From a phage, in sequence record PZ242158.1: DNA of 64,000 nucleotides; one strand, given 5' to 3'. The position numbers and the translations under genes are program-made. Shown here piece by piece: positions 16,126-19,213 of the stretch (the first letter of the stretch is position 1; each line of letters begins with the position of its first letter). The notes under the pieces are model-generated. The model had not been told where the DNA came from and ran no database searches. It saw only the letters and a program-made list of their open reading frames with translations.

Positions 16126-16785
16126 TTTTTTAACTGAATTATCAAGGGGCTTAGGTCCCTTTCTTTTTGTCTGCTCTTCCTCCCTACCATAAACGGCCCT
16201 ACCTGGCAAGTGGAATAATTGACGAGCCATCAATCCCACACACTGTACAAATATACATGTAAAATAACTATTGCATAACCTTTCATTGTGTGGTAGCGGT
16301 GCTATTTTTACCCGTTTTCCTTCCAAAATTGCACGTAATGCAGCTATTGCACAAAATTTAACCTGATGCGCATCTTCAATATCTTGTCAACAACTAAAAA
16401 TCTTTATAAGTCATACACTTACACAAACCAAAAAGCGTGTTCTACGTGAAAAATCGAGTATAACTATAGCCGACAGATCTCAGAATTTACGTACGCTCAC
16501 CATTCTATAGCCTGCTAAGTATTTATTCCGACCATAGAATAACAGAATAGTCAATACCTGCATAAAATAATTATTCGTTTAAATTGCATAACATAAATCA
16601 GCTCAGGTGTCAACATTTTTCGTAAACAGTCTGAAATTGTCACGGCAAGTTATCATAATCAGAGAAATCTTTAGTCGTCTAATGTTTACTGTACGTTACT
16701 ATACTAACTGGAATCATTAGATGACTAATAGAAAGATAAGAAATAATTAACAATACAATTATTTTATCTGTAACAATAAGGCAAC

Positions 16786-16950
16786 TATGCAAACGAATGG
16801 CATGGCGCGACGGAGTCGCGACATAATATAAAAGCAGTAACCATCACCCCCGTGATAGTTTGTCTGCAATCTATTAATCAGATCATAGTTGCCTTGTATT
16901 TAGTTAATCATGACATAACAAGCAAGGCAACTATAGATCTTCTAATAGTT
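16786..16950. repeat. iteron-like inverted repeats (AAGGCAACTAT / ATAGTTGCCTTG) with palindrome GCGACGGAGTCGC
   Basis: GGCAACTAT occurs twice direct and twice inverted within about 160 bp; ATGCAAACGAATGGCATGGC also repeated at 16797 and 17059. Confidence 0.5.
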
Positions 16951-17191
16951 GCCCTGCTTTTATATTATGTCATATATTATTAACTTGTTAATTGTTAGTC
17001 AGTCAAATCAACAGCGTTATCATTTCAGTCTTTATTGTTGTTGATCGTTATTGTTATCATGCAAACGAATGGCATGGCTTATCATCTCTGTATAAACAGT
17101 TTATGCGTGAACAGTGAGGCATGCAATAGTAACAATTGTTATTGTGTCATCATGTCAAGGGTAAAGTGTCATAGTATGTCAGACATGTTTT

Positions 17192-17625
17192 TCCCCTCTT
17201 TGTCAAGTGCTGCATGAAAAAATTTACAAGCTGGTATGGTAGCATTTTTGCGGCCTTGTTTACATTCAGGAGTGTATGTATAATCCTTGTTGTGTGGGCG
17301 TTTATACGTCTGGACGGTCAGAAGTCTGCAGGTTAATATCTAATCTATTGGCTGCTAACTATATCCCACACAAATGATAAGAAATATAATTGTTATATGC
17401 GTAAACTGTAACTCATGTTATCAATCCCTGTATGTATCGCCAGTGGTGCGCATAATGGGTATTATGTTAAATTGCCCGTAATGATAACAGTTCTCACAAT
17501 GATAGGTATTCTCATTCATCCACACAAAATAGGTTGCAAATGTTGTGCCACTGTGTGAACGGCCTGGCCTATTAATTTCTCTCACTGCCTCGATATTTGA
17601 GAATTGTTATAAGAATGAGAAGTAT
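17192..17625. repeat. 434-bp direct repeat, copy 1
   Basis: Identical to 17752-18185 by visual comparison. Confidence 0.85.
17256..17284 (+). promoter_or_regulatory. sigma70-like promoter inside repeat copy 1 (TTGTTT-17-TATAAT)
   Basis: Perfect -10 hexamer with 17-bp spacer; no ORF downstream. Confidence 0.4.
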
Positions 17626-17751
17626 CCATGTTTATATTACATCTACTTGGTTCAGAACCAAAATGCGCGAAAGCGTTTCACGATAACTAGCGACCACGGT
17701 CTGTTCCCTGGCGGCCATACGGCTTCTACTGAACGCAGCAGAGGGCGATAA

Positions 17752-18185
17752 TCCCCTCTTTGTCAAGTGCTGCATGAAAAAATTTACAAGCTGGTATGGT
17801 AGCATTTTTGCGGCCTTGTTTACATTCAGGAGTGTATGTATAATCCTTGTTGTGTGGGCGTTTATACGTCTGGACGGTCAGAAGTCTGCAGGTTAATATC
17901 TAATCTATTGGCTGCTAACTATATCCCACACAAATGATAAGAAATATAATTGTTATATGCGTAAACTGTAACTCATGTTATCAATCCCTGTATGTATCGC
18001 CAGTGGTGCGCATAATGGGTATTATGTTAAATTGCCCGTAATGATAACAGTTCTCACAATGATAGGTATTCTCATTCATCCACACAAAATAGGTTGCAAA
18101 TGTTGTGCCACTGTGTGAACGGCCTGGCCTATTAATTTCTCTCACTGCCTCGATATTTGAGAATTGTTATAAGAATGAGAAGTAT
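17752..18185. repeat. 434-bp direct repeat, copy 2
   Basis: Identical to copy 1; 126-bp unique spacer between copies. Confidence 0.85.
17816..17844 (+). promoter_or_regulatory. sigma70-like promoter inside repeat copy 2 (TTGTTT-17-TATAAT)
   Basis: Same as copy 1. Confidence 0.4.
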
Positions 18186-19213
18186 TCCCATTCCGTCCGC
18201 CTGGCAGCGCTCCTGTAGGTCCTGCAAGGACTCTAGCTTTCAGCTAGACCCTTCGGGCCTCCCTACAGGTCAGGTCAAAATCGTGGTAGAATTGGGCCTA
18301 TTCAGATATTTCTGGCTGACTCTTCAGGTCTGTGTGGGAAAAGCCAACCTCTCCGGCGGGGCAGGGGGAGGTCAATTAAAAAATTTACGTGGTGTATGAA
18401 GCGCTCTTCAGGTAAGGCAGGTATTATGGGATGAAACCCTCTTCAGGCAATGATATTTGTGGGTGTGATATTTGCTGGAAAGCCAGATATGACGGGACTC
18501 CCGGCGGGGCAGGGGTAGTACAGACAGGGAAAATATGAGAATGTAGTTGGGGAAATTGATCAGACAGGTAGAGTATGGAATATGTTACAAGTATGTTAAA
18601 TATGGAGGTTGAATATCTGTAGGATTTGTGTGTAAAATCAAAGACTTAAGGGGTGTTGTGATATTTTCTATAAATAATTCAAGTTTAATAGGTGATATTT
18701 GTCTCTATCCGCTTTGTGTGGTAAACAGATTCAGATGAGATTGGTTTACAAGTGTATACATAATATACAAATTAAAGATACAAGAAACCCCCCATCCCCC
18801 TTCGGCTACCATTCACCTTTTCCTCTGACTGGTACTTAAACACTTATTCAGACTCTTCAGGTTATCACCCATATATCATATGGCAGTGACTGGTGTCCTC
18901 CGGCCCCTCTTTCGTCACCCGTCCGCTTCGCCATGCTAATGCCATAGCCAATGGTTCGGTTGTTCACCCTGTTCACTCAGGTGTATCTCCATACCCCTTC
19001 AAACCGAAGAGAACAGAAAACCCGAATTACTCGGTAAAAGAAAAGAGAAGAACTTAATTTTATCAGGATAGGCAAGAATGTCAAGGCATGACTGCTCACT
19101 AAACAAGCAAACAGTCATGTGTGGGAGGTAAGTGATTGTGGTGGTGGGAAATTTAGTTGAAAGATGTGTTATAGGTGCGCTTCCAGCACTTTAGCCGGGC
19201 AGCTAATTGTGTG

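Follow-up and report, generated by a model that had tools for sequence, protein, structure and literature searches.

The closest described counterparts of the locus analyzed here are the direct terminal repeats (DTRs) of rV5-like myoviruses of the genus Vequintavirus. For the phages EdH4 and HdK5, terminal redundancies of "458 bp" have been reported (PMC6563267). In the deposited EdH4 record both ends are identical over 459 bp, and the Gotham record carries an annotated repeat_region at positions 1 to 459 and again at 136567 to 137025, the two copies being identical to each other. For the related phage KPP-1 of the genus Mydovirus, a DTR of 514 bp was determined by coverage and PhageTerm, the latter classing the phage as T7-type (PMC9862379). 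In the concatemers of DTR phages each junction contains a single repeat, the second copy being synthesized at packaging (PMC10438801). The features of T7-type packaging that we take as common to T7 and the phage studied here are fixed termini, a short exact repeat, a single copy per concatemer junction, and the production of the second copy at packaging; unlike T7, the phage studied here is a myovirus of approximately 137 kb, and its repeat is unrelated in sequence. A technical precedent comes from untrimmed long-read phage assemblies, in which adapter and barcode DNA was found to flank the DTRs (PMC10438801; PMC9965538); in the case of phage YF01, residual Y-adapter sequence was trimmed from the termini (PMC9965538).

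The DNA under study is a stretch of 64,000 nucleotides of a phage genome (sequence record PZ242158.1), referred to below as the window, and it contains two identical repeats next to one another. As detailed in the following sections, these are very probably the DTRs of an rV5-like phage that were placed side by side when a long-read assembly was circularized or rotated, with Nanopore residue left between them.

The repeat pair and its counterparts in related phages

Self-comparison of the window confirmed the repeat pair given in the preliminary description: the copies at 17192 to 17625 and 17752 to 18185 are identical at 434 of 434 positions, the match breaks off sharply at both edges, and the 126-bp spacer between them gives a repeat period of 560 bp. 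A third copy is absent from the window. Tandem Repeats Finder reported nothing, the maximum period of the tool being 500 bp versus 560 bp here. The repeats had been described as devoid of open reading frames (ORFs), and this holds in the sense that only ORFs of 40 to 54 amino acids are present, which match no PHROG family; five small ORFs located within the repeat or close to it gave no matches in PHROGs. The pair lies within a gene-free stretch of about 2.5 kb (approximately 16330 to 18890 of the window), on which gene blocks converge from both sides. The left part of this region is AT-rich (32 to 35% GC) and full of short repeats, among them an exact 20-nt repeat, ATGCAAACGAATGGCATGGC, at 16787 and 17059 and a perfect 18-nt inverted repeat (16820 to 16837 and 16954 to 16971). 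To the right of the pair, CCGGCGGGGCAGGGG is found at 18353 and 18501 and repeats of the type CCTCTTCAGG at 18403 to 18452.

The source of the window is an rV5-like myovirus of the genus Vequintavirus. About 120 phage records match the region at 90 to 98% identity, and the best match over 25 kb in the phage collection has approximately 95% identity to the window. At least 80% of the repeat is covered in a single place by 118 of the 120 matching phage records; the eight extra places found among these records include the terminal second copies of EdH4, Gotham, HdK5, and ECP2309 and an adjacent duplicate in the Shigella phage CM1. Comparison with related genomes had been proposed at the outset, and the relatives aligned across the region turned out to be single-copy and to lack any counterpart of the spacer. 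Specifically, navn and rV5_ev147 possess one contiguous arrangement X-A-Y, with A denoting the repeated segment and X and Y its flanks, and in pairwise BLAST both the X-A part of the window (up to 17625) and its A-Y part (from 17755) map onto this arrangement.

In four records, those of EdH4, Gotham, HdK5, and ECP2309, the segment occupies positions 17 to 449 and is present in a second copy. The repeat of the window shares 95 to 97% identity with the DTRs of Gotham and EdH4. Aligned with the window, the 459-bp DTR is made up of 10 nt, the 434-bp repeat, and 16 nt. The first 10 nt read GACAAGTTTT in Gotham and GACATGTTTT in the window (17182 to 17191), and the last 16 nt correspond to TCCCATTCCGTCCGCC (18186 to 18201 of the window). 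The layout of the window is thus X-[10 nt + repeat]-spacer-[repeat + 16 nt]-Y: relative to the termini of the related phages, the repeat edges are set inward by 10 and 16 nt, and each copy retains on its outer side the nucleotides that the other lacks. Apart from the trimmed tips, the agreement with the Vequintavirus DTRs (459 bp in Gotham, 458/459 bp in EdH4 and HdK5) extends to sequence (approximately 95%), flanks, and, once the 10 and 16 nt are counted, boundaries, and it also includes the location in a noncoding gap of about 2.5 kb between two convergent gene blocks. What differs is the arrangement, since in Gotham, EdH4, and HdK5 one copy is situated at each end of a linear record, whereas those of the window are adjacent, trimmed, and separated by 126 nt of non-phage DNA.

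An alignment of 11 sequences, i.e., the window and 10 relatives, showed that the DTR is conserved to approximately 95% and that the flanks become variable and rich in insertions and deletions exactly at the DTR boundaries. Repeat numbers in the flanks adjacent to the DTR differ among the relatives. In the right flank, the perfect hairpin CTAGCTTTCAGCTAG at 18233 to 18247 reads CTAGCTGAAAGCTAG in the relatives possessing it, with an identical stem but an inverted 3-nt loop, a pattern that template switching at a palindrome would produce. Within the repeat, a run of six A residues, CATGAAAAAATTT, is present at 17216 to 17221 and 17776 to 17781; in each of the 10 aligned relatives this site is shorter by one base (five A residues, or GAAAA in two of them), and the extra A may be either a consensus error in homopolymer length or a real difference.

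Judged by its homology and the coincidence of its boundaries with defined DTRs, the 434-bp segment is the direct terminal repeat of a Vequintavirus and hence a packaging-related element, which was one of the functions originally considered for it. On this basis, the right end of the genome is followed in the window by the left end, with the tips trimmed by 16 and 10 nt, respectively, and the predicted ends of this phage are 5'-GACATGTTTT... and ...CCGTCCGCC-3'. The repeat as such is already known, as it is the reported 459-bp terminal repeat of rV5-like phages, and the pair adds nothing new on its biology. The coordinates of all features discussed are compiled in Table 1.

Table 1. Features of the repeat locus, with positions in the window, strand, and supporting evidence
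Feature	Position	Strand	Evidence and remarks
Four TGTCA motifs, the last directly abutting the left DTR boundary (TATGTCA^GACA)	17145–17181	+	4 in 37 nt versus 3.2 per kb in the window
DTR copy of the right genome end (...X-DTR)	17182–17625		First 10 nt (GACATGTTTT) plus 434 bp, without the last 16 nt; aligns to the Gotham/EdH4 DTR; X flank contiguous as in single-copy relatives
Promoter-like TTGTTT-17-TATAAT (predicted)	17256–17284; 17816–17844	+	−10 hexamer, 6/6; −35 hexamer, 3/6 versus TTGACA
18-bp tandem repeat, two units (AATGATAACAGTTCTCAC / AATGATAGGTATTCTCAT)	17480–17515; 18040–18075	+	Sequence and alignment; repeat_region in the navn, pangalan, and Alma records
Spacer, non-phage, read as Oxford Nanopore rapid-barcoding adapter residue	17626–17751		No extended database match; absent from aligned relatives; adapter-model score
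Nanopore Y-adapter top strand, noisy match	17631–17655	+	TTTATATTACATCTACTTGGTTCAG versus TTTTTTTTA-ATGTACTTCGTTCAG; 21/25 positions, score 14
Phage Mu right end (MuA transposase binding)	17657–17693	-	Exact 21-nt core TTATCGTGAAACGCTTTCGCG at 17666–17686; 37 nt with gaps; aligns to the last 50 nt of Mu (NC_000929)
Barcode 08-like stretch	17695–17710	-	CAGGGAACAGAC..CGTG versus TTCAGGGAACAAACCAAGTTACGT; partial, score 11 versus ≤8 for 11 other barcodes
Adapter top strand, weak match	17728–17738	-	CTGCGTTCAGT versus CTTCGTTCAGT; p ~0.03
DTR copy of the left genome end (DTR-Y...)	17752–18201		434 bp plus last 16 nt (TCCCATTCCGTCCGCC), without the first 10 nt
TGCCA directly abutting the right DTR boundary (CTGCCA^GGCGG)	18202–18206	-	Alignment and boundary comparison

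Composition of the spacer and origin of the tandem arrangement

The spacer had been described as unique, and its composition is not that of phage DNA. Its GC content is 49%, versus 38% for the repeat. A search against 50,697 phage records and 5,426 E. coli genomes gave no extended match at an E value of ≤0.01, and exact-pattern scans of IMG/VR for the spacer returned nothing. At that database size a 21-nt match misses the E-value threshold, which is why phage Mu was not reported by the search; the Mu end was therefore compared directly. The right end of Mu was recognized in the spacer with a score of 25, versus a maximum of 15 in 1,000 shuffles. This right-end sequence serves as a MuA transposon end in vitro (PMC5517011), and MuA is used in Nanopore rapid barcoding (bioRxiv 10.64898/2026.04.18.719403). 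A match to the Y-adapter, for which the query sequence was taken from PMC9965538, reached a score that was attained by none of 1,000 shuffles, and next to the Mu end a stretch resembling barcode 08 was found, the sequence of this barcode being confirmed in PMC5534310. On the minus strand, the weak adapter match (17738 to 17728) is followed by the barcode 08-like stretch (17710 to 17695) and then by the Mu end (17693 to 17657), the same succession of elements with which a rapid-kit read begins. When the spacer was aligned with a model combining adapter, barcode, and Mu end, the local alignment score was 27, compared to a maximum of 15 for shuffled sequences and of 17 for the 503 other tiles of the window.

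With the exception of the 21-nt Mu core, the matches to adapter components are noisy. The flanking sequence of the barcode, GCTTGGGTGTTTAACC, cannot be recognized in the spacer, where the expected region is garbled, and its addition to the adapter model gave no higher score. Because of this and because the barcode match is partial, the composition of the spacer identifies a rapid-barcoding kit as its source only with probability and not with certainty. The spacer is read as residue of Nanopore adapter, barcode, and Mu end.

The exact 21-nt match to the Mu right end could also point to a remnant of deliberate engineering or of a natural Mu-type transposition into the phage. We consider this extremely improbable, given that the spacer holds one partial Mu end only, with no inverted second end, cargo, or 5-bp target duplication, that non-Mu Nanopore adapter and barcode-like sequence lies alongside it in kit order, and that the spacer is located exactly between two genome termini.

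A physical origin of the whole arrangement would be a genuine tandem duplication, in which a 560-bp unit, composed of the repeat and a captured foreign segment of 126 bp, is present inside the packaged DNA. The arrangement is, after all, present in the sequence as given, and an exact adjacent pair at the same locus is found in Shigella phage CM1 (MK962749.1, approximately 105534 to 106579). There, a 523-bp unit, consisting of 64 nt of left flank and the 459-bp DTR, occurs twice in tandem and ends at the canonical right terminus. Unlike the pair of the window, with its different unit length, the CM1 pair contains neither a spacer nor adapter sequence. Either a longer terminal repeat was retained in both copies when the record was rotated, or the pair is an artifact of assembly; its presence indicates that duplications or duplicate representations do occur at the locus. 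Nevertheless, a tandem duplication in the packaged DNA is very unlikely for the window: the edges of its repeats lie 10 and 16 nt inside known physical termini, which is not what a random duplication would produce, the spacer contains a Mu end and Nanopore adapter sequence, and the relatives aligned across the region are single-copy. A natural concatemer junction was rejected as an explanation because concatemers of DTR phages hold a single repeat copy per junction (PMC10438801).

The explanation that we favor, an artifact of long-read assembly across the genome ends, would operate as follows. In the virion, one DTR copy would be located at each end of the linear DNA of approximately 137 kb, whereas the concatemer would contain one copy per genome unit; terminase would cut at fixed sites on either side of the DTR, and fill-in synthesis would make the second copy. 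DTR copies would then always be identical, since the second is made by fill-in from one template, and the perfect identity of the two repeats, previously attributed to recent duplication or active homogenization, would follow from DTR synthesis. A circularized or rotated assembly would join the ends head to tail in the form X-[DTR minus the last 16 nt]-126 nt-[DTR minus the first 10 nt]-Y. Nanopore reads running off the physical DNA ends would have lost the 16 and 10 nt in question, in agreement with the loss of 10 to 20 bp reported for reads that run off a DNA end (bioRxiv 10.64898/2026.04.18.719403). The 126 nt would represent garbled rapid-barcoding adapter, barcode, and Mu transposon end, with one adapter facing outward per terminus; run-off reads would have continued into the adapter of the molecule sequenced next, and the two ends were presumably bridged during assembly. 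Compared to the published long-read assemblies, in which adapter and barcode residue flanks the DTRs, the residue of the window would have become internal through circularization or rotation across the ends.

Two observations bear on the limits of this explanation. Rapid-kit adapters are inserted by transposition, and an adapter abutting a terminus needs chimeric or back-to-back reads, a step that we infer; this counts against the artifact reading. Moreover, single-base insertions and deletions relative to relatives numbered 16 and 24 in comparisons with the window and 13 in a control pair, with no clear homopolymer excess of the Nanopore type. With all the evidence considered, the origin of the pair in an assembly artifact remains very probable, and the need to exclude such an artifact was well placed in the preliminary description. 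For quality control, this means that about 126 nt of adapter residue and a duplicated DTR in the middle of an apparently contiguous genome inflate its length by 560 bp. If uncorrected, the artifact can seed false annotations of a "repeat" or a "non-coding RNA," and it hides the true genome ends. To correct it, the spacer has to be deleted, the 10 and 16 nt missing from the tips put back, and the genome linearized at its termini.

Promoter-like sites and 18-bp motifs inside the repeat

Each copy had been credited with a near-consensus promoter reading into DNA without a plausible ORF. The element TTGTTT-17-TATAAT is indeed present in both copies, and its −10 hexamer is perfect; the qualification "near-consensus" does not extend to the −35 hexamer, which matches the consensus at only half of its positions and is poorly conserved. 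In the 11-sequence alignment, the −10 hexamer reads TATAAT in nine sequences, and the −35 hexamer reads CTGTTT in nine. In a sigma-70 scan the site remained below the threshold of the scanner and was not listed.

Likewise, two palindromes resembling Fur boxes had been noted per copy. Either one matches the 19-bp Fur consensus GATAATGATAATCATTATC at 13 of 19 positions, a score of at least 13 being reached at 30 positions in the 64-kb window; the two sites are the units of an 18-bp tandem repeat. An exact-pattern scan of IMG/VR for the pair of 18-bp units returned nothing. Near the right end of the DTR, at 17598 to 17610, the 18-bp motif occurs a third time, in inverted orientation, as TGAGAATTGTTAT, which is complementary to ATAACAATTCTCA.

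These elements had led to the proposals that the repeat is a duplicated noncoding RNA gene, transcribed from TTGTTT-17-TATAAT, or a regulatory decoy titrating Fur. In favor of these proposals are the perfect −10 hexamer, with its conservation in nine of the 11 aligned sequences, the occurrence of two 13/19 matches to the Fur consensus within 460 bp, for which approximately 0.2 would be expected from the window-wide rate, and the absence of a coding signal from the repeat. The covariance-model search suggested for the repeat was performed with Rfam and matched no RNA family in it: searches of the whole window at the gathering score and of the region from 16200 to 19200 at an E value of ≤10 yielded nothing but tRNAs and chance-level matches. 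The tRNA genes of the window include a cluster of seven at 62085 to 62897, one of which is a 99-nt tRNA-like gene (62554 to 62652) that was assigned a four-base anticodon (atcc) by ARAGORN and reached no more than 35.5 bits with the tRNA model of Rfam. The putative transcript from 17291 to 17625 is predicted to fold no better than shuffled sequences (z = −0.47), the same is true of the spacer (z = −0.24), and no compensatory changes were seen in the 11-sequence alignment. The RNA gene is therefore not borne out by the Rfam and folding results, and no support was found for the decoy. As the duplication itself is accounted for by the DTR, the −35 hexamer is a weak one, with CTGTTT in its place in most relatives, the site fails the scanner threshold, and the presumed Fur boxes are units of the 18-bp tandem repeat, a function as duplicated RNA gene or Fur-titrating decoy is highly improbable. 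It is possible that the promoter-like element and the 18-bp motifs play a role in terminase recognition or in early events.

Motifs at the DTR boundaries

Both boundaries of the DTR are marked by a motif of the form TGYCA on the strand reading into the repeat (Table 1), and both motifs are invariant in the 11 aligned sequences. Related motifs occur at the DTR boundaries in Mydovirus, which belongs to the same subfamily. The boundaries of KPP-1, at 116316 and 116829 of its record, read TGCTA^A and TGCTA^G, and these two boundaries coincide exactly with the first positions of the DP and KP12 records. The DP record has an annotated 514-bp repeat at both ends, and its boundaries read TGTTA^A and TGCTA^G. 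In Vequintavirus (TGTCA^G and TGCCA^G) as well as in Mydovirus, both DTR boundaries are thus located directly 3' of TGYYA on the inward-reading strand. Inside the DTR, an AATGATA...TTCTCA motif occurs three times, alongside the conserved −10 element.

Taken from the sequence comparison, these features suggest a possible course of events in which staggered nicks at the two TGYYA sites would create 5' overhangs with the length of one repeat, and fill-in of these overhangs would yield the DTR. Nick sites of the type TGYYA^R on inward-reading strands are proposed here from sequence and are not a demonstrated feature of T7. The repeat together with its flanks might, as a tentative suggestion, constitute the complete terminase recognition module of the Vequintavirinae. 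The symmetric occurrence of TGYYA^R at both boundaries in two genera is the only point about the locus that is possibly new, and it provides a candidate nick site for the terminase.
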